In this document: piece by piece, positions 1 through 4,776 of the stretch
How positions within the stretch are numbered: position 1 is the first letter of the stretch
Layout: each line of letters starts with the position of its first letter
Virus record (IMG/VR): IMGVR_UViG_2603880148_000009
Source: a virus
Lineage: Duplodnaviria; Heunggongvirae; Uroviricota; Caudoviricetes
Strand: one strand, 5' to 3'
DNA length: 4,776 nucleotides
The notes under the pieces: generated by a model
Told to the model about the DNA's origin: nothing
Databases searched by the model: none
What the model saw: only the letters and a program-made list of their open reading frames with translations
Position numbers and translations under genes: made by a program

Positions 1-64
1 GCAGTTCGCTGCATACCGGTCCGACCCCGTACTGCTCACGCAGCTTATCCAGCAGTGGCATCAT
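1..64 (-). CDS. IS3-family transposase OrfB, 5' fragment (continues beyond window)
   Basis: Mirror of 4723..4776; ATG overlaps orfA stop (ATGA) in the -1 frame, translation [18 protein letters not shown]...; typical orfA/orfB overlap of IS3 family. Confidence 0.6.
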
Positions 65-387
65 TTTTTCCAGAGGCGGTCGAACTCCGCCTTCGCAAAA
101 TAAGCGGAAGCCTGGCGAAGGATATCGTTACTGCGGCGCAGTTCACGATTTTCACGTTCCAGCTCTTTCAGACGCTGACGTTCAGCGCTGGTGAGCCCAC
201 CATCACCGCCCCCGGTATCCCGCTCATGCTGGCGAACCCAGACACGCAGAGTCTCCGGCGTACAGCCAATCTTTGGGGCAATGGAACAAATTGCCGCCCA
301 CTGTGAGTCATATTCATCCTGACTTTCCAGAACCATACGAATCGCCCGCTGACGGACTTCGGGGGAAAAACGAGTATTTTTAGTCAT
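61..387 (-). CDS. IS3-family transposase OrfA (HTH, leucine-zipper-like C-terminus), IS629-like
   Basis: 108-aa [26 protein letters not shown]...; ATG at 385-387 (complement); identical protein to 4400..4726; matches my recollection of IS629/IS1203 OrfA. Confidence 0.9.
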
Positions 388-412
388 CCTGTTTACCTCT
401 TTCTCAGGGAGT

Positions 413-853
413 TTAGTCTCCAGGATTTCCGGGGCGGTTCACTCCGGCATCTTTTTTATTGGTTTGGGGGAGTGGATTAATTACCCTCTCAAGGTGAGAT
501 TTATTGGTCCTGGAGTTTGGACTCGTGGATATAATCGTTCTTCGTGCGCACTCGGTATCATCTTCGACATACTTGGTTGTTTCCTGATTGTTACAGGAGT
601 CGTCAAGTTCTTCTGATGTAAAACCGCAAATGGGGCACGTAACGGGAATTTTGAAAAGCGTTTCTCCGGGTTCCAGAACAAAATTTTCTGCGGTCTGATT
701 TTGCTTCTCATATTTGTGCTCCGCGTCATTGTGAGAGCACATTCTTATTCTGAGTGCCTGTTTAAACTCACTGAAGCTGAGAGCTTCTTCGCCTTCGGCA
801 AGGCCTTCGAAGTATTCTTCGTAAGCCTTTTCCATGATTGTGTCGAAATCCAT
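413..853 (-). CDS. YdfB/YdfC-like prophage protein with CxxC motif; last ~9 codons and stop are encoded by IS sequence (3' end probably disrupted)
   Basis: ORF-track ORF 413..895; I prefer the ATG at 851-853 because it has an AGGTGA Shine-Dalgarno ~7 nt upstream and sits 1 nt after the ydfA stop, whereas the 895 ATG has no SD. Protein begins [17 protein letters not shown]..., contains TCPICG. Reading frame passes the IS junction at 441/442 with no stop. Confidence 0.5.
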
Positions 854-854
854 A

Positions 855-1010
855 TCACTCACCTGAGTTTCTTTCCAGCCAGCGACGGGCACCATTTTCG
901 GTTTTAAACGTTTTGCTTTTGGTATACGTCATCGCGGTGAACGTGCCGTCCTGATTGGGGAACACGCCACATACCAGAGATTCGCTGTTGCCAAGATCGA
1001 TAGTATCCAT
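855..1010 (-). CDS. ydfA: YdfA-like small prophage protein (51 aa)
   Basis: ATG at 1008-1010 (complement) preceded by GAGG SD; protein MDTIDLGNSESLVCGVFPNQDGTFTAMTYTKSKTFKTENGARRWLERNSGE; the 77-aa ORF-track version starts at a TTG at 1086-1088 and is less plausible. Position immediately downstream of dicA matches Qin prophage gene order (recall). Confidence 0.6.
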   Translation of the reverse strand: MDTIDLGNSESLVCGVFPNQDGTFTAMTYTKSKTFKTENGARRWLERNSGE

Positions 1011-1126
1011 GCTGACCTCATTTCCCCTTAACGCCGGGGTGGCGGAACTGTTTGCTGAGAACACCGTGCGGTGTGTTGATGTAAACAAGATTAGTCATAA
1101 CTAACATATTGGTCAAGTGATTTTGT

Positions 1127-1142
1127 ATGTTATGGCTAACAT
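1127..1142. promoter_or_regulatory. Palindrome ATGTTA-TGGC-TAACAT, candidate repressor-binding site between dicA and ydfA
   Basis: Perfect 6-bp inverted arms seen in sequence; shares GTTA...TAAC core with the two palindromes in the dicA-dicC intergenic region. Confidence 0.3.
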
Positions 1143-1151
1143 AATTGATAT

Positions 1152-1182
1152 AATAAAAGATAACTCATTGATGATGTTATCT
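1152..1182 (-). terminator. Candidate intrinsic terminator at dicA 3' end (possibly bidirectional)
   Basis: Inverted repeat AGATAAC (1158-1164) / GTTATCT (1176-1182) with 11-nt loop; T-rich runs on both sides (TTTTATTT on plus 1182-1189; AATAAAA on plus 1152-1157 = U-run on minus). Stem is AT-rich, so weak. Confidence 0.3.
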
Positions 1183-1584
1183 TTTATTTGTCCGCTGACG
1201 GGCTTTTAGTAATTCTTCAAAGAGTTTATTGAAATTTTTTACTCGAGCTCGCATTTCGGCGAGCTGGGTATCCTGTTCTGATTCTGGCAGTGCATTAAAC
1301 AGCTCAAGGAGCTCTAGTTCTTTGGGGGCTAAGGCAACCGGCTTCTCAACAGGTGGTGTTGGTTGCTTGTCTTCATCGCCAAATAGAATCCATGTTGGTG
1401 AGCATTGCAATACTTTGCTGAGGGCAAAAAGGTTCTTCCCTGTAGGTTCACTATCATCCCGTTCCCATTGTGATACAGACACATGGGAGATTTTCAGGGC
1501 TTTAGCAAGAGACCTTTGGGTGTGTTTGAGGTTTTTCCGACGATACCTAATGCGTTCGCCGATGGTTAAATTTTTTGTATCCAT
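1177..1584 (-). CDS. dicA: HTH XRE-family repressor, DicA-like (cI/C2-type prophage repressor)
   Basis: 135-aa ORF MDTKNLTIGERIRYRRKNLKHTQRSLAKALKISHVSVSQWERDDSEPTGKNLFALSKVL...; classic HTH_3 signature (Q-x-x-LA-x-x-x-x-IS-x-x-x-VS-x-WE); matches my recollection of E. coli Qin DicA almost residue for residue; divergent from a cro-like gene. Confidence 0.85.
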   Translation of the reverse strand: MDTKNLTIGERIRYRRKNLKHTQRSLAKALKISHVSVSQWERDDSEPTGKNLFALSKVLQCSPTWILFGDEDKQPTPPVEKPVALAPKELELLELFNALPESEQDTQLAEMRARVKNFNKLFEELLKARQRTNKR

Positions 1585-1586
1585 AG

Positions 1587-1600
1587 TTAGCTAATGCTAA
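1587..1600. promoter_or_regulatory. Palindrome TTAGC-TAAT-GCTAA, candidate operator adjacent to dicA start codon
   Basis: Perfect 5-bp inverted arms, 3 nt from the dicA ATG (1582-1584 complement); lies in the divergent dicA/dicC control region. Confidence 0.35.
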
Positions 1601-1604
1601 ATCG

Positions 1605-1633
1605 TATTGACTATGTTTTTGTTAACATCTATT
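1605..1633 (+). promoter_or_regulatory. Candidate sigma70 promoter for dicC (-35 TTGACT 1605-1610, 17-nt spacer, -10 TATTTT 1628-1633)
   Basis: Hexamers and spacing read directly from sequence; SD AAGGTG at 1654-1659 and ATG at 1668 follow. Confidence 0.35.
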
Positions 1634-1634
1634 T

Positions 1635-1652
1635 TGTTAGCCATGACTAACA
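1635..1652. promoter_or_regulatory. Palindrome TGTTAG-CCATGA-CTAACA, candidate operator overlapping the predicted dicC transcription start
   Basis: Perfect 6-bp inverted arms immediately downstream of the predicted -10; same GTTAG/CTAAC arms as the other two palindromes. Confidence 0.35.
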
Positions 1653-1667
1653 TCTAAGGTGTTTTAA

Positions 1668-1898
1668 ATGCTTAAAACTGACGCTCTTTTGTATTTCGGT
1701 TCAAAAACAAAACTTGCACAAGCAGCAGGTATTCGTTTGGCTTCGCTTTATAGCTGGAAAGGGGATTTAGTTCCCGAAGGTCGCGCGATGCGTCTACAGG
1801 AGGCATCTGGCGGGGAGCTTCAGTATGATCCCAAAGTTTATGACGAATATCGTAAGACGAAGCGGGCGGGGCGGTTGAACAATGAAAATCACTCCTGA
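1668..1898 (+). CDS. dicC: Cro-like regulator DicC-like
   Basis: 76-aa ORF MLKTDALLYFGSKTKLAQAAGIRLASLYSWKGD...; divergent from dicA across an 83-bp region with palindromes; matches my recollection of E. coli DicC. Confidence 0.8.
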   Translation: MLKTDALLYFGSKTKLAQAAGIRLASLYSWKGDLVPEGRAMRLQEASGGELQYDPKVYDEYRKTKRAGRLNNENHS

Positions 1899-2403
1899 AC
1901 AGGCTCGTGAGGCTCTGGATGCCTGGATATGTCGACCAGGAATGACACAGGAGCAGGCGACGATATTAATCACTGAAGCATTCTGGGCTTTGAAAGAGCG
2001 CCCGAACATCGATGTTCAGCGTGTCACATATGAAGGTGGCGCGGTTGATCAGCGAGCGCTTAGCGTTAATCGAGTGAAGATATTTGAACGCTGGAAGGCT
2101 ATCGACACCAGGGATAAGCGTGAAAAGTTCACAGCGCTAGTGCCTGCAATTATGGAGGCTATCCGGATTAGTGATTTCAGGTTGTATCGTGAAATTAGTG
2201 ACGGAAAGAGCATTACGTACATGATCGCTGGGTTAAATAAAGAATATGGCGATGTGGTGGAGTCCGGACTGCTTTTTGCAGATCCTGCCGTTGTAGATCG
2301 TGAAACTGACGAACTTATAGAAAAAGCAATTGCTTTCAAGCTTGCGTATCGACAGCAATACCAACAAAAAGCTGGATGGAATTATGAGCCTTCTTTTTGC
2401 TGA
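1882..2403 (+). CDS. YdaT-like prophage protein (putative toxic/regulatory protein downstream of cro-like gene)
   Basis: 173-aa ORF with ATG at 1882, overlapping dicC 3' end by 17 nt; the position (third gene after repressor/cro) and the general sequence character resemble YdaT-family proteins of Rac-like prophages; family assignment is from recall, not a search. Confidence 0.55.
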   Translation: MKITPEQAREALDAWICRPGMTQEQATILITEAFWALKERPNIDVQRVTYEGGAVDQRALSVNRVKIFERWKAIDTRDKREKFTALVPAIMEAIRISDFRLYREISDGKSITYMIAGLNKEYGDVVESGLLFADPAVVDRETDELIEKAIAFKLAYRQQYQQKAGWNYEPSFC

Positions 2404-3349
2404 ACGCCCACTGGTTATAAACACACAGCTTGCGATGAAGATTGGCTTAAACGAAGCCATTGTGTTGCAGCAACTGCATTACTGGTTGAGAGATACCAAT
2501 TCCGGCATGGAATGTGATGGTGTTCGCTGGATTTACAACACAACGGAACAATGGCTGGCGCAGTTCCCGTTCTGGTCAGAGTCAACGTTAAAGCGCGCGT
2601 TTGCAAGTCTGAAAACGCTGGGGCTTTTGCGTTGCGAAAAGCTCAATAAATCAAAGCGCGACATGACCAATTTCTACACGATCAACTATGGGAGCGATCT
2701 TTTAGATGGTGGCAAATTGAGCGAATCCATCAGTTCAAAATGCGTCGCTCCATCAGGTCAAAATGACATGATGGAAGAGGTCAAAATGAAACGCTCCATT
2801 GGTTCAAAACGACCCAATGTCATCGGGTCAAAATGGCCCGATGATCCTACAGAGAATACAACAGAGATTACTACAGAGAATAAAAACACTTTTCGTCCGG
2901 AAGCTTTGCAACCGGACCAGCAGACGGCTGAACAGGATTTTTTAATCCGGCACCCTGACGCAGTTGTGTTTAGTGCGAAAAAACGGCAGTGGGGTAGCAG
3001 GGAGGATTTGGCGTGTGCGCAGTGGATCTGGGGGCGGATCGTGGGTCTCTACGAACAGGCCGCCAGTGATGATGGCGAGATCATGCGACCAAAAGAGCCT
3101 AACTGGACTGCCTGGGCCAATGACGTGCGCACAATGCGGATGCTGGATGGCAGAAGCCACAGACAAATTTGCGAAATGTTTGGTCGGGTACAGCGAGATC
3201 CATTCTGGGTCAAAAACATCATGAGTCCGTCAAAGCTTCGCGAAAAATGGGATGAGCTGGTTATTCGCCTGGGGCGTTCGCCAATAAAGCGTTGTGTGAA
3301 TCATATTTCTGAACCGGATACCGAAATTCCGCCTGGTTTCAGGGGATAA
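2384..3349 (+). CDS. Phage replication initiator / replisome-organizer-like protein (N-terminal winged-helix DNA-binding domain, central linker containing the origin repeats, C-terminal domain)
   Basis: First ATG at 2384 (the ORF-track start at 2330 is a TTG that overlaps the upstream gene by 74 nt); N-terminus LVINTQLAMKIGLNEAIVLQQLHYWLR is HTH-like; the gene contains a DNA-level iteron array, as lambda O contains ori-lambda. Confidence 0.65.
   Translation: MSLLFAERPLVINTQLAMKIGLNEAIVLQQLHYWLRDTNSGMECDGVRWIYNTTEQWLAQFPFWSESTLKRAFASLKTLGLLRCEKLNKSKRDMTNFYTINYGSDLLDGGKLSESISSKCVAPSGQNDMMEEVKMKRSIGSKRPNVIGSKWPDDPTENTTEITTENKNTFRPEALQPDQQTAEQDFLIRHPDAVVFSAKKRQWGSREDLACAQWIWGRIVGLYEQAASDDGEIMRPKEPNWTAWANDVRTMRMLDGRSHRQICEMFGRVQRDPFWVKNIMSPSKLREKWDELVIRLGRSPIKRCVNHISEPDTEIPPGFRG
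2727..2835 (+). repeat. Iteron array: five direct repeats (consensus about CCATCAGGTCAAAATG) at 23-24 bp periodicity, putative replication origin inside the initiator gene
   Basis: TCAAAA cores at 2735, 2758, 2781, 2804, 2828; flanking bases also conserved (CCATCAGTTCAAAATG / CCATCAGGTCAAAATG / GAGGTCAAAATG / CCATTGGTTCAAAACG / CATCGGGTCAAAATG). Period is not a multiple of 3, so each copy is translated in a different frame, i.e. the repeat is conserved at DNA level, not protein level. Confidence 0.6.
2849..2882 (+). repeat. A-rich 12-bp tandem repeats (ACAGAGAATA / ACAGAGATTA / ACAGAGAATA) immediately downstream of iterons; candidate DNA-unwinding element of the origin
   Basis: Three copies starting at 2849, 2861, 2873, followed by AAAAAC; encodes TENTTEITTENKNT in the initiator linker. 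Confidence 0.4.
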
Positions 3350-3389
3350 GTGTTGATTTCAGGTCATGAGGTAATTTTAAGGGGGACTT

Positions 3390-3818
3390 GTGGCAAAAGT
3401 TTTTACACAAGAAGAGCGGGAAAAAATTAAAGGGCAGGTGGTGGAACTCGTGCGCCAGAGCGGTCGTGAGACGTTACGGCAACTGGAAGCCAAGACAGGT
3501 GCGACAAGATATCTGATGAGCGCTCTTGCCAGAGAGCTGGTTGCCAGTGGCGATGTATACAACTCTGGTTACGGGTTATTCCCGTCTGAACAGGCCCGTA
3601 AGGACTGGCAAAACGCCCGCAAAAAACTCTCGAGGGCAAAGGTGAAGAAACCCGCTGCGGTTGATCCAGACCTTATCTGGTCATTAGCTGACGGAGAAAT
3701 ACGTCGTTACGACAGACATCATAATATAATTTGTAGTGAGTGCCGTAAAAGCGAAGTTATGCAGCGTATATTGTCTTTTTATCAGGGAAATGTTCGATAT
3801 TTATTGAAGTATCAATAA
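3390..3818 (+). CDS. Hypothetical protein (142 aa), unknown function
   Basis: GTG start at 3390 preceded by strong SD AAGGGGG 5 nt upstream; no recognisable Walker motifs; C-terminal ~35 codons are markedly AT-rich; C-terminal HHNIICSECRK motif. Confidence 0.5.
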   Translation: MAKVFTQEEREKIKGQVVELVRQSGRETLRQLEAKTGATRYLMSALARELVASGDVYNSGYGLFPSEQARKDWQNARKKLSRAKVKKPAAVDPDLIWSLADGEIRRYDRHHNIICSECRKSEVMQRILSFYQGNVRYLLKYQ

Positions 3819-3913
3819 CCTATTTAAACATTCCTTAAACTCAGAGTAGACTGGGTTAACAATCTGTTTCAATTGCAAATTGACAATCTATAGCCAGCGC
3901 GACGGGAGTGTTC

Positions 3914-4348
3914 ATGTTTAGTCAGGTTGACATCGGTAGTTTCGGTAGTTTTACGGACCTCAGTTGGAAAAATAGCCTTAAGGATGCAGGTAACAATGTC
4001 CAGAATTTCAAGAGGCTTAACATCCTCTACGGACGGAACTACTCTGGTAAAACTACACTCTCACGAATTTTCCGCGCTTTGGAAACGGGGCGCATTCCAC
4101 ATAACTACGTGGACCCAAATTTTACTATTCGTGGTGACAAAGGTGATGTGACACAGGTAGGTCTTGCTGGTCATGGCTACGATGTTCGCGTCTACAACCG
4201 GGATTTTGTGAGCGATAACCTAAACTTCTTGGTCAATCAGACCGACGGCGAGATCAAGACGTTTGCTATCGTTGGTGAAAAGAATAAAGAAATCGAAGAT
4301 GCCATTACCGCAATTCAAACTAGGTTAGGCAGTGTTGAATCGAAGTGA
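3914..4348 (+). CDS. P-loop NTPase N-terminal fragment (Walker A GRNYSGKTT; AAA_13/ABC-ATPase-like), truncated by IS insertion; the stop codon TGA is the first three bases of the IS
   Basis: ATG at 3914 with GGGAG SD 5 nt upstream (the ORF-track GTG at 3908 overlaps the SD); Walker A at residues ~43-51; no Walker B or further ATPase motifs before the reading frame hits the IS terminus TGAACC at 4346; low GC relative to neighbours. Confidence 0.6.
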   Translation: MFSQVDIGSFGSFTDLSWKNSLKDAGNNVQNFKRLNILYGRNYSGKTTLSRIFRALETGRIPHNYVDPNFTIRGDKGDVTQVGLAGHGYDVRVYNRDFVSDNLNFLVNQTDGEIKTFAIVGEKNKEIEDAITAIQTRLGSVESK

Positions 4349-4399
4349 ACCGCCCCGGAAATCCTGGAGACTAAACTCCCTGAGAAAGAGGTAAACAGG

Positions 4400-4726
4400 A
4401 TGACTAAAAATACTCGTTTTTCCCCCGAAGTCCGTCAGCGGGCGATTCGTATGGTTCTGGAAAGTCAGGATGAATATGACTCACAGTGGGCGGCAATTTG
4501 TTCCATTGCCCCAAAGATTGGCTGTACGCCGGAGACTCTGCGTGTCTGGGTTCGCCAGCATGAGCGGGATACCGGGGGCGGTGATGGTGGGCTCACCAGC
4601 GCTGAACGTCAGCGTCTGAAAGAGCTGGAACGTGAAAATCGTGAACTGCGCCGCAGTAACGATATCCTTCGCCAGGCTTCCGCTTATTTTGCGAAGGCGG
4701 AGTTCGACCGCCTCTGGAAAAAATGA
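4400..4726 (+). CDS. IS3-family transposase OrfA, IS629-like
   Basis: 108-aa ORF identical to the protein of 61..387; run of six A immediately before the stop and orfB ATG overlapping the stop in the -1 frame. Confidence 0.9.
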
Positions 4727-4776
4727 TGCCACTGCTGGATAAGCTGCGTGAGCAGTACGGGGTCGGACCGGTATGC
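4723..4776 (+). CDS. IS3-family transposase OrfB, 5' fragment (continues beyond window)
   Basis: ATG at 4723 overlapping orfA TGA (ATGA), -1 frame relative to orfA; [18 protein letters not shown]... Confidence 0.6.

Follow-up and report, generated by a model that had tools for sequence, protein, structure and literature searches.

Separate IS1203 insertions in a Qin-type cryptic prophage very probably account for an IS-bounded immunity and replication segment in a draft Escherichia coli contig

The window analysed here is the whole 4,776-nt stretch of IMG/VR record IMGVR_UViG_2603880148_000009. It holds a lambdoid immunity and replication block lying between two inverted partial copies of the insertion sequence IS1203, which we call IS-A (left) and IS-B (right), and an interrupted prophage gene lies at each inner junction. 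Its features are listed below by coordinates and strand.

1..441, minus: IS-A, the IRL-proximal 441 nt of IS1203 (IS629-type, IS3 family), with the IRL end at 441
1-106, minus: ALIL frameshift pseudoknot of IS-A (Rfam RF01497), cut by the window end
61-387, minus: orfA of IS-A (Pfam HTH_Tnp_1)
413..895, minus: truncated long ydfB-like ORF (phrog_35040)
442..444: CTC, presumed 3-bp target duplication of IS-A; the empty-site match starts exactly at 442
855..1010, minus: ydfA (DUF1391), first gene of the dicBF operon
1085..1176, minus: dicBp region, analogous to PL/OL; operator-like sites lie at 1091-1104 and 1126-1139
1177..1584, minus: dicA, CI-like repressor, 135 aa (NF007257, 2.6e-70)
1585..1667: intergenic region between dicA and dicC, analogous to OR; operator-like sites lie at 1587-1600 and 1637-1650
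1607-1635, plus: promoter-like site in the dicA-dicC intergenic region
1668..1898, plus: dicC, Cro-like regulator (NF007282, 1.8e-47; P22_Cro)
1882..2403, plus: YdaT-family gene in the CII position (PF06254; phrog_163, 8.8e-41)
2384..3349, plus: O-like replication initiator, 321 aa (phrog_391, 4.5e-91)
2728..2885, plus: putative origin inside the O-like gene (iterons plus A-rich run)
3390..3818, plus: DUF977 gene, elsewhere annotated 'LygF' or 'Ren-like' (PF06163, 1.8e-29)
3914..4348, plus: AAA_13 ATPase gene, truncated after 144 of its 798 codons; PDC-S06, a candidate defence gene in PADLOC
4343..4345: AAG, verified 3-bp target-site duplication of IS-B
4346..4776, plus: IS-B, 431 nt of a second copy of IS1203, from its IRL end
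4400-4726, plus: orfA of IS-B (Pfam HTH_Tnp_1)
4681-4776: ALIL pseudoknot of IS-B (Rfam RF01497), cut by the window end

Both arms begin with TGAACCGCCCC (IRL) and carry a complete orfA, and the positions of these two genes on opposite strands place the orfA-proximal ends inward, as an earlier note on this DNA had described. That note's assignment of the arms to the IS3 family is likewise borne out: each orfA encodes an HTH_Tnp_1 domain, RF01497 matches the two arms at 96.5 and 86.8 bits, and the arms do not differ from the IS1203 copy annotated in E. coli E8, where the element measures 1310 bp. In contig L006 the IS-B copy runs on for 1291 nt at 100% identity to the E8 element, and orfB, which lies beyond the window, is present with its rve domain in contigs L006 and L012. 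An A6 slippery run occurs at IS position 373, and IRL and IRR agree at 22 of their first 26 positions (TGAACCGCCCCGG..., TG...CA), only the IRL lying inside the window. The element thus combines an HTH-encoding orfA, an rve-encoding orfB, a -1 frameshift signal, inverted repeats, a length and a target duplication (the last taken from IS-B) that are those of the IS3 family; the E8 copy has AAC as its target duplication. IS1203/IS629 elements in E. coli prophages share the 1310-bp length, orfA/orfB, the -1 frameshift, the ALIL pseudoknot and the 3-bp duplication, as well as the multi-copy habit and frequent insertion into lambdoid prophages; there is no real difference from insertions elsewhere except that these two sites are unseen in complete genomes. 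In E. coli E8 and ECCHD184 the same prophage has been hit independently by IS1203-type elements at other sites.

Base-by-base comparison of 11-441 with the reverse complement of 4346-4776 gives 431 nt with 0 mismatches, although the contig's IS sequence may be a consensus over all genomic copies and the identity of the two copies is sure only for the assembler output. This is the full-length alignment that the earlier note had called for; its statement that the arms are reverse complements holds exactly over these 431 nt, whereas the right-hand start it gave, 4336, has to be corrected to 4346. A repeat search returned slightly longer arms (11-446 and 4341-4776). The IS ends nevertheless lie at 441/442 and 4345/4346, because the CT and AG bases just past them fall within a 100% match to IS-free genomes; we thus rejected these bases as part of the IS, and they pair by chance before the match stops. 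A perfect inverted repeat of 431 nt is not a chance event, and it represents two copies of a high-copy IS.

The interior between the IS ends (442-4345, 3904 bp) matches, at 100% identity, the Qin-type prophage found in three complete E. coli genomes, which have no IS at either site and in which the region from dicB through the AAA ATPase gene to hokD-rem is uninterrupted; both insertion sites therefore exist empty. The repressor, cro-like gene, operators and initiator that the earlier note had placed between the arms can all be named. DicA scores 234.5 bits against an NCBIfam cut-off of 101 and DicC 159.5 bits against a cut-off of 130, and the DicA product has no S24 peptidase domain. The operator-like motif TTAGYYATRRCTAA occurs four times, against 0.11 expected, all of them in the intergenic regions on the two sides of dicA, one of which, between dicA and dicC, also contains an inverted repeat detected by the repeat search. 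Divergent CI-like and Cro-like genes with operator-like repeats in both an OR-like and an OL-like region are the features of Qin-type lambdoid immunity, and the dicA-dicBp operators have been described (PMC10448788). The O-like initiator gave no Pfam or NCBIfam match and is labelled 'phage O protein family' in the annotation of the IS-free relatives. Codons 115-154 of its gene (2728-2843) comprise five 23-bp iterons, followed at 2847-2885 by an A-rich run in which a 15-nt unit occurs three times at 12-nt intervals, the copies overlapping; this stretch is 63% AT, against 54% overall. By analogy with lambda ori, the iteron array and the A-rich run may together serve as a replication origin.

Qin (Kim) of E. 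coli K-12 resembles this prophage at several levels. Gene order is the same (dicA-dicC, dicBp-ydfABC-dicF-dicB), DicA and DicC exceed the curated cut-offs of NCBIfam, operator-like sites occupy both intergenic regions, and the three IS-free genomes share the rspB-side chromosomal neighbourhood. The two prophages differ in that the present one has a 205-aa ORF in place of K-12 ydfB and ydfC and keeps the CII-like/YdaT gene, the O-like initiator with its iterons, DUF977 and the PDC-S06 ATPase (full in the IS-free relatives), a stretch of which much has been lost from K-12 Qin. Phage PhiR42_1 carries the same module at 95.8% identity.

As the earlier note had observed, the genes at the two inner junctions, the ORF at 413-895 and the ATPase gene at 3914-4348, read into the IS. 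Both end on IS-coded stops. On the right, the stop codon TGA of the truncated ATPase gene is the first three bases of IS-B. The inner junction of IS-B reads gaatcgAAG/TGAACC and its outer junction, found in contigs L012 and L013, reads GGTTCA/AAGgcggg, while the corresponding empty site in L001 is gaatcgAAGgcggg with a single AAG. A neighbouring contig of the same assembly carries the remainder of the ATPase gene contiguously past IS-B, followed by hokD and rem'. Inspection of the outer flank, which the earlier note had proposed, thus recovered on this side both the duplication and the missing gene half. Since AAG flanks IS-B and the remainder of the ATPase gene is intact, IS-B is a simple insertion of a single IS into a resident prophage, without loss of DNA, and not the end of a transposed unit. 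A 623-aa partial ATPase (P0098) was considered as a source of the right outer junction and rejected, as its contigs start at codon 176 and carry no IS end.

On the left, the ORF at 413-895 consists of 150 native codons followed by 10 IS-coded codons and the stop, whereas the intact form, taken from the cluster representative, has 205 aa; the remaining 55 codons, beyond the IS, offer no start codon that could be used, and the genes that follow, dicB and ydfD, are too common to mark out the strain. A simple insertion predicts that the outer flank of IS-A is dicB-side Qin sequence ending ...ttgggttttttgtcCTC, with an outer junction of ...gtcCTC/TGAACCGCCCCGGGTTTCC, which can also be written ...ccattgggttttttgtcCTC/TGAACCGCCCCGGGTTTCCTGGAGAGTG. 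The predicted junction TTGGGTTTTTTGTCCTC/TGAACCGCCCCGGGTTTCCTGG had 0 matches in JGI metagenomes. We infer that IS-A is likewise a simple insertion. Of the two origins that the earlier note had offered, independent insertions accord with IS-B being bracketed alone by AAG, with the interrupted gene continuing outside it.

The surroundings of the window suggest how its symmetrical appearance arose. A third IS1203 copy (IS-C) lies inside rem, 3 kb further right, at the end of the neighbouring contig, so that this contig too is bounded by inverted IS copies. IS arm lengths in sibling contigs differ (379/1291, 328/338 and 1305/1305), which is expected of assembly breaks because the contigs break inside the repeated IS. 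The window therefore appears to be an entire contig with its breaks inside the repeat, its IS-to-IS ends being a property of the assembly. A sequence identical to the window is present in NCBI assembly GCA_000705005.1, the right junction occurs in five independent contigs (NCBI, Logan, ENA) and the left in two NCBI contigs. Megablast searches with the whole window and with 300-bp junction probes found neither inner junction in 5,426 complete E. coli genomes. Exact-pattern scans covered GTDB representatives and IMG/VR for both inner junctions, and JGI metagenomes for the left one as well; all gave 0 matches, in collections that do not contain the source. The only carriers of the junctions are sibling draft contigs, all of them within the native prophage. 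The one match of 100% coverage (H86, ECCHD184) was set aside, as it is split in two by an IS that lies elsewhere in the ATPase gene. Separately, sibling lineages show an apparent natural IS excision scar with re-insertion close by, a minor instance in nature of the IS629 excision that has been studied in the laboratory.

Two identical IS copies around a passenger segment could suggest a compound transposon, the composite unit that the earlier note had envisaged, in which the outer IRR ends would cooperate so that the repressor/cro/ori/initiator block has moved, or can move, in one piece; with 22 of the first 26 positions shared by IRL and IRR, an IRR-IRR pairing is chemically conceivable. Copy-out-paste-in elements, however, join IRL to IRR. 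A compound transposon would also have a duplication around the whole unit and be known to move or to occur in more than one context, whereas here AAG brackets IS-B alone, the ATPase gene continues right outside it, and the block sits in situ with its native neighbours, its inner junctions absent from other contexts among the complete genomes, GTDB representatives and IMG/VR. The likeness to Tn6330 (ISApl1-mcr-1-ISApl1) ends with the two identical IS copies around a passenger: the ISApl1 copies flanking Tn6330 are in direct orientation, while those in the window are inverted, with like ends (IRR) outward. Tn6330 with ISApl1 is a documented compound transposon of the copy-out-paste-in class. Movement as such a unit is accordingly a highly improbable account of the window. 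A related proposal, that the DicA-DicC-O-ori block is a mobilisable cassette resembling lambda dv and released through IRR-IRR pairing or IS-circle-type intermediates, would, if true, let a released cassette replicate in other places or bring immunity to superinfection there. The block does share with lambda dv plasmids a PR-like promoter followed by Cro-like and CII-like genes and by an O-like initiator with internal iterons. In contrast to lambda dv, no circle can be released by recombination between inverted repeats, and a P-like helicase loader is encoded neither here nor in the related phage PhiR42_1; we give this proposal almost no credence.

Recombination between the two copies bears on the remaining readings. 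Deletion of the segment by this route, which the earlier note had included, does not follow, as inverted repeats only invert; it would need a third, directly oriented copy outside the window, namely IS-C. Inversion would be the sole recombination product open to the IS-A/IS-B pair and is physically possible by a RecA-dependent route, which is established for inverted repeats such as these, perfect over 1.3 kb and 3.9 kb apart. That the 3.9-kb block acts as a regulatory switch, or is present in both orientations in the population, is nonetheless very unlikely: neither an invertase nor a site-specific recombinase turned up in the ORF and domain searches, within the segment or beside it, 1.3-kb IS copies stand where a Hin/Gin/Cin or fim-type switch would have its short recombination sites, and flipping would reconnect no promoter to a gene, both junction genes being already broken by the IS. 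The four junction sequences are moreover the same in both isomers, to whose orientation contigs are blind. The truncation of both junction genes could also reflect a rearrangement in which the insertions came with loss of neighbouring prophage DNA, and deletions next to the element are a known effect of the IS629 type; on the right, though, the exact 3-bp duplication, the uninterrupted gene remainder and the hokD and rem' that follow leave nothing missing, contrary to the earlier note's suggestion of removed flanking DNA, and we regard this account as very unlikely. Because the window ends within a repeat on both sides, a single IS copy in a fold-back or chimeric contig might produce the same picture, but the same IRL end abuts two different unique flanks and the junctions recur in independent data sets, on which grounds we rejected a fold-back misassembly; an assembly artefact of this kind has a negligible probability.

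Very probably, then, the window is a contig of a draft E. coli genome in which separate IS1203 insertions struck a Qin-type cryptic prophage, and its IS-bounded look comes from assembly breaks. The proposed course of events is that, in a draft genome of the GEMS-type isolate family whose Qin-type cryptic lambdoid prophage would adjoin rspB, IS-B inserted at codon 144/145 of the 798-aa AAA_13 (PDC-S06) ATPase gene, and that assemblers, unable to resolve a multi-copy 1.3-kb repeat, would have returned each inter-IS stretch as its own contig with IS at both ends. Breakage of contigs inside the repeated IS thus gives the look of an inverted terminal repeat, and inverted IS arms at contig ends should be read as an assembly signature and not as evidence for a transposon.

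This is ordinary prophage decay, with no new mobile cassette, and it matters little beyond adding another case of a high-copy IS that colonises and breaks up a cryptic prophage. For the prophage itself the insertions would be polar and inactivating. IS-A would cut off the toxic genes dicF, dicB and ydfD from dicBp, the promoter under DicA control, IS-C would disrupt rem, the antirepressor that induces the same toxic genes, and IS-B would knock out the ATPase encoded by the candidate anti-phage defence gene PDC-S06.

A repeat search of the window returned terminal inverted-repeat arms at 11-446 and 4341-4776, and a base-by-base comparison of 11-441 with the reverse complement of 4346-4776 gave an exact match over 431 nt with 0 mismatches; past the IS ends, two flank bases pair by chance before pairing breaks off. 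Both arms start at their inner ends with TGAACCGCCCC, both contain a complete orfA of 108 codons with an HTH_Tnp_1 domain, and each runs about 100 nt into the ALIL -1 frameshift pseudoknot (Rfam RF01497, 96.5 and 86.8 bits) before the window ends. Exact repeat, orfA and ALIL bear out the earlier note's reading of two IS3-family copies with orfA-proximal (IRL) ends inward; the identity of the arms that it proposed is confirmed, with the right-hand boundary corrected from 4336 to 4346.

A sibling contig, L006 (NCBI GCA_000705005.1, 5574 nt), equals the window over all 4714 common bases and extends 1291 nt through the right-hand IS. These 1291 nt are 100% identical to an element of E. coli E8 annotated "IS3-like element IS1203 family transposase", which is 1310 bp long and has a 3-bp duplication, AAC, on its two sides; 22 of the first 26 positions agree between its termini. 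An rve DDE domain is found in orfB on contigs outside the window, and thousands of E. coli records match the element, which by sequence is plain IS1203/IS629.

The interior (442-4345, 3904 bp) is 100% identical to three complete E. coli chromosomes, T309.Ta3, 600029 and CFE299, in which it belongs to a Qin-type lambdoid prophage adjoining rspB. Gene order there runs int, xis, exonuclease, ydfD, dicB, the segment, the remaining part of a 798-aa AAA ATPase gene, hokD, rem, ydfU, antiterminator. Both positions are free of IS in all three chromosomes, and therefore both sites exist empty.

Features of the window
1-441, minus: left IS1203 copy (IS-A), orfA at 61-387
413-895, minus: left junction ORF
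855-1010, minus: ydfA (DUF1391), domain/annotation match
1177-1584, minus: dicA (NCBIfam DicA, 234.5 bits, cut-off 101)
1668-1898, plus: dicC (159.5 bits, cut-off 130; P22_Cro)
1882-2403, plus: YdaT-family / CII-like (phrog_163, 8.8e-41)
2384-3349, plus: O-like initiator (phrog_391, 4.5e-91)
3390-3818, plus: DUF977, domain match
3914-4348: right junction ORF
4346-4776, plus: right IS1203 copy (IS-B), orfA at 4400-4726

Within the O-like gene, five 23-bp iterons (2728-2843, codons 115-154) are followed at 2847-2885 by three overlapping copies of a 15-nt A-rich unit at 12-nt spacing, which is the layout of lambda ori, and the iteron region is a putative origin. The same module is also present, at 95.8% identity, in the isolated phage PhiR42_1, where no replication gene other than the O-like one is recognisable. 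Four copies of the operator-like motif TTAGYYATRRCTAA are in the window, against 0.11 expected, all of them in the two intergenic regions flanking dicA, in agreement with the OR-like and OL-like operators described at dicCp and dicBp (PMC10448788). At the level of genes, the earlier description of repressor, cro-like gene, operators and initiator with internal origin was accurate, the function of the origin being a prediction. Both IS copies have orfA sense to prophage early transcription, which runs left from dicBp and right from dicCp (promoter regions 1085-1176 and 1585-1667), so that prophage derepression could increase expression of the transposase. Such an orientation has one chance in four and may be coincidence.

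Each IS interrupts a gene. The left junction ORF comprises codons 1-150 of a 205-aa prophage ORF (phrog_35040), whose N-terminus corresponds to ydfB, followed by 10 IS-coded codons. The intact ORF, at 11839-12454 (minus) of the IS-free reference L001, has a CxxC-type motif, belongs to a cluster of 1798 members and stands in place of K-12 ydfB and ydfC; the RefSeq annotation has no more than a 'ydfB pseudogene' fragment at this place, so a genuine gene may have been missed. At the IS-A terminus and flank (429-456), a GC-rich hairpin and the T-run after it (CCGGGGCGGTTCACTCCGG CATCTTTTTT) form a terminator-like plus-strand site, probably a fortuitous product of the insertion.

The right junction ORF comprises codons 1-144 of 798 of an AAA_13 ATPase, with the stop codon supplied by the IS. 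The full gene (L001 15473-17869) encodes an end-to-end match to the PADLOC candidate defence family PDC-S06 (1067 bits). Some sources call the ATPase a 'wobble nucleotide-excising tRNase'; its homologues in Ralstonia, Burkholderia, Xanthomonas and Tolumonas have 76-80% identity, an unusually high conservation across distant taxa that suggests recent horizontal spread. Thirteen NCBI contigs from other assemblies share one start inside this gene (623-aa partial protein P0098); position 1 of two such contigs, L010 and L011, equals L001 ~15998 (codon 176), ~93 nt downstream of the IS-B site, suggesting a further point of recurrent assembly breaks or insertion.

The 144-aa truncated ATPase is found in only five contigs, each short and each ending in IS. 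Through the C-terminal ATPase fragment P0154 we reached the neighbouring contig L012 (JNSB01000128), from the same assembly as L006, and its counterpart L013 in GCA_000700125.1. With a slash marking the junction, the outer junction of IS-B in both reads ...GGGGCGGTTCA/AAGgcgggtctcc..., the inner junction in the window ...gaatcgAAG/TGAACC..., and the empty site in L001 ...gaatcgAAGgcgggtctcc...; IS-B is thus flanked by a perfect 3-bp target duplication, AAG. Beyond it the rest of the ATPase gene follows without loss, and the next 3 kb equal L001 except for one SNP. The outer-flank check that the earlier note had suggested was therefore positive on the right side, with both the duplication and the missing gene half recovered, and IS-B is a single IS inserted into a resident prophage. 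The outer (left) junction of IS-A was not recovered; on that side the IS-free match begins exactly at the IS end. Of the two independent insertions previously suggested, that of IS-B is proven by AAG and the gene remainder, and that of IS-A we infer.

L012 is itself flanked by inverted IS1203 sequence and has at its right-hand end a third copy, IS-C, at 4354-5658 (JNSB01000128.1, minus), inserted after L001 18951 in codon 18 of rem, the DicA antirepressor gene, ~3 kb right of IS-B. The prophage therefore holds at least three copies, IS-A (minus), IS-B (plus) and IS-C (minus), and the assembly gave every inter-IS stretch as its own contig, which is why the window looks bounded by IS.

IS arms (left / right) of contigs from this prophage
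window: 441 / 431 nt
L006: 379 / 1291 nt
L013: 328 / 338 nt
L012: 1305 / 1305 nt

Arm sizes vary among sibling assemblies, as expected of assemblers breaking at a repeat. In the size bins of contigs with the 144-aa protein there is room for exactly one further contig of 2-5 kb, in keeping with the 4776-nt window being a whole contig. Neither inner junction was found by BLAST in 5,426 complete E. coli genomes; in exact-pattern scans, the left was absent from GTDB representatives, IMG/VR and JGI metagenomes, and the right from GTDB representatives and IMG/VR. In E8 an independent IS1203-type insertion in the same prophage lies within the O-like gene, and in ECCHD184 one lies elsewhere in the ATPase gene.

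The L001:17895 C>T SNP of L012 recurs in L014-L017, four contigs drawn from other data sets; L015 and L016 have the IS-C junction as well. All four are without IS at the AAG site and instead have a 1-nt deletion exactly within the triplet (gaatcgAGgcggg).

Deletion site (window 4343-4345, L001 15902-15904)
L014: ~808
L015: ~179
L016: ~68
L017: ~38

Upstream of the site there is a new IS1203 IRR end, at a distance of 41 nt in L015 and L016; in L014 the distance is ~780 nt, which places it in DUF977. With AAG on both sides of IS-B, the allele in the window cannot have arisen from the one with the deletion, so the parsimonious order is intact site, insertion, then imprecise IS loss with a new local insertion; the deletion looks like a scar of imprecise excision, with re-insertion nearby afterwards. 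IS629/IS1203v is described to undergo precise and near-precise excision, stimulated by transposase and IEE, via microhomologies (bioRxiv 10.1101/2023.06.07.543989; PMC9943667).

What the data show are ordinary IS1203 insertions, two in the window and a third outside it. For composite transposition, an idea of the earlier note, two IRR ends would have to be paired by transposase across 6.5 kb, and the end sequences are alike enough to make this chemically conceivable. However, the duplication would then enclose the unit as a whole; AAG flanks IS-B alone, an outcome the note itself had named as speaking against a composite, and no trace of a past event is seen. Neither composite transposition nor a mobilisable cassette is supported.

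Homologous recombination between inverted copies inverts only, and deletion requires direct repeats. For the IS-A/IS-B pair, which is inverted, the product would thus be inversion of the 3.9-kb block only, and the suggested deletion between the two is unsupported; IS-A and IS-C are direct repeats, so their recombination could delete all DNA in between. As to an invertible segment, no recombinase gene is present, and inversion would alter no promoter-gene link usefully, because both junction genes are already broken. As inversion keeps all four flank-IS junctions identical, the contigs cannot tell native from inverted orientation.

What the window shows is a familiar IS inside an already described cryptic prophage, viewed through a fragmented assembly. 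IS-B probably inactivates the PDC-S06 gene, and IS-A would probably block dicBp read-through into dicF/dicB/ydfD. The Rem antirepressor induces dicBp (PMC10448788), and IS-C probably removes it.
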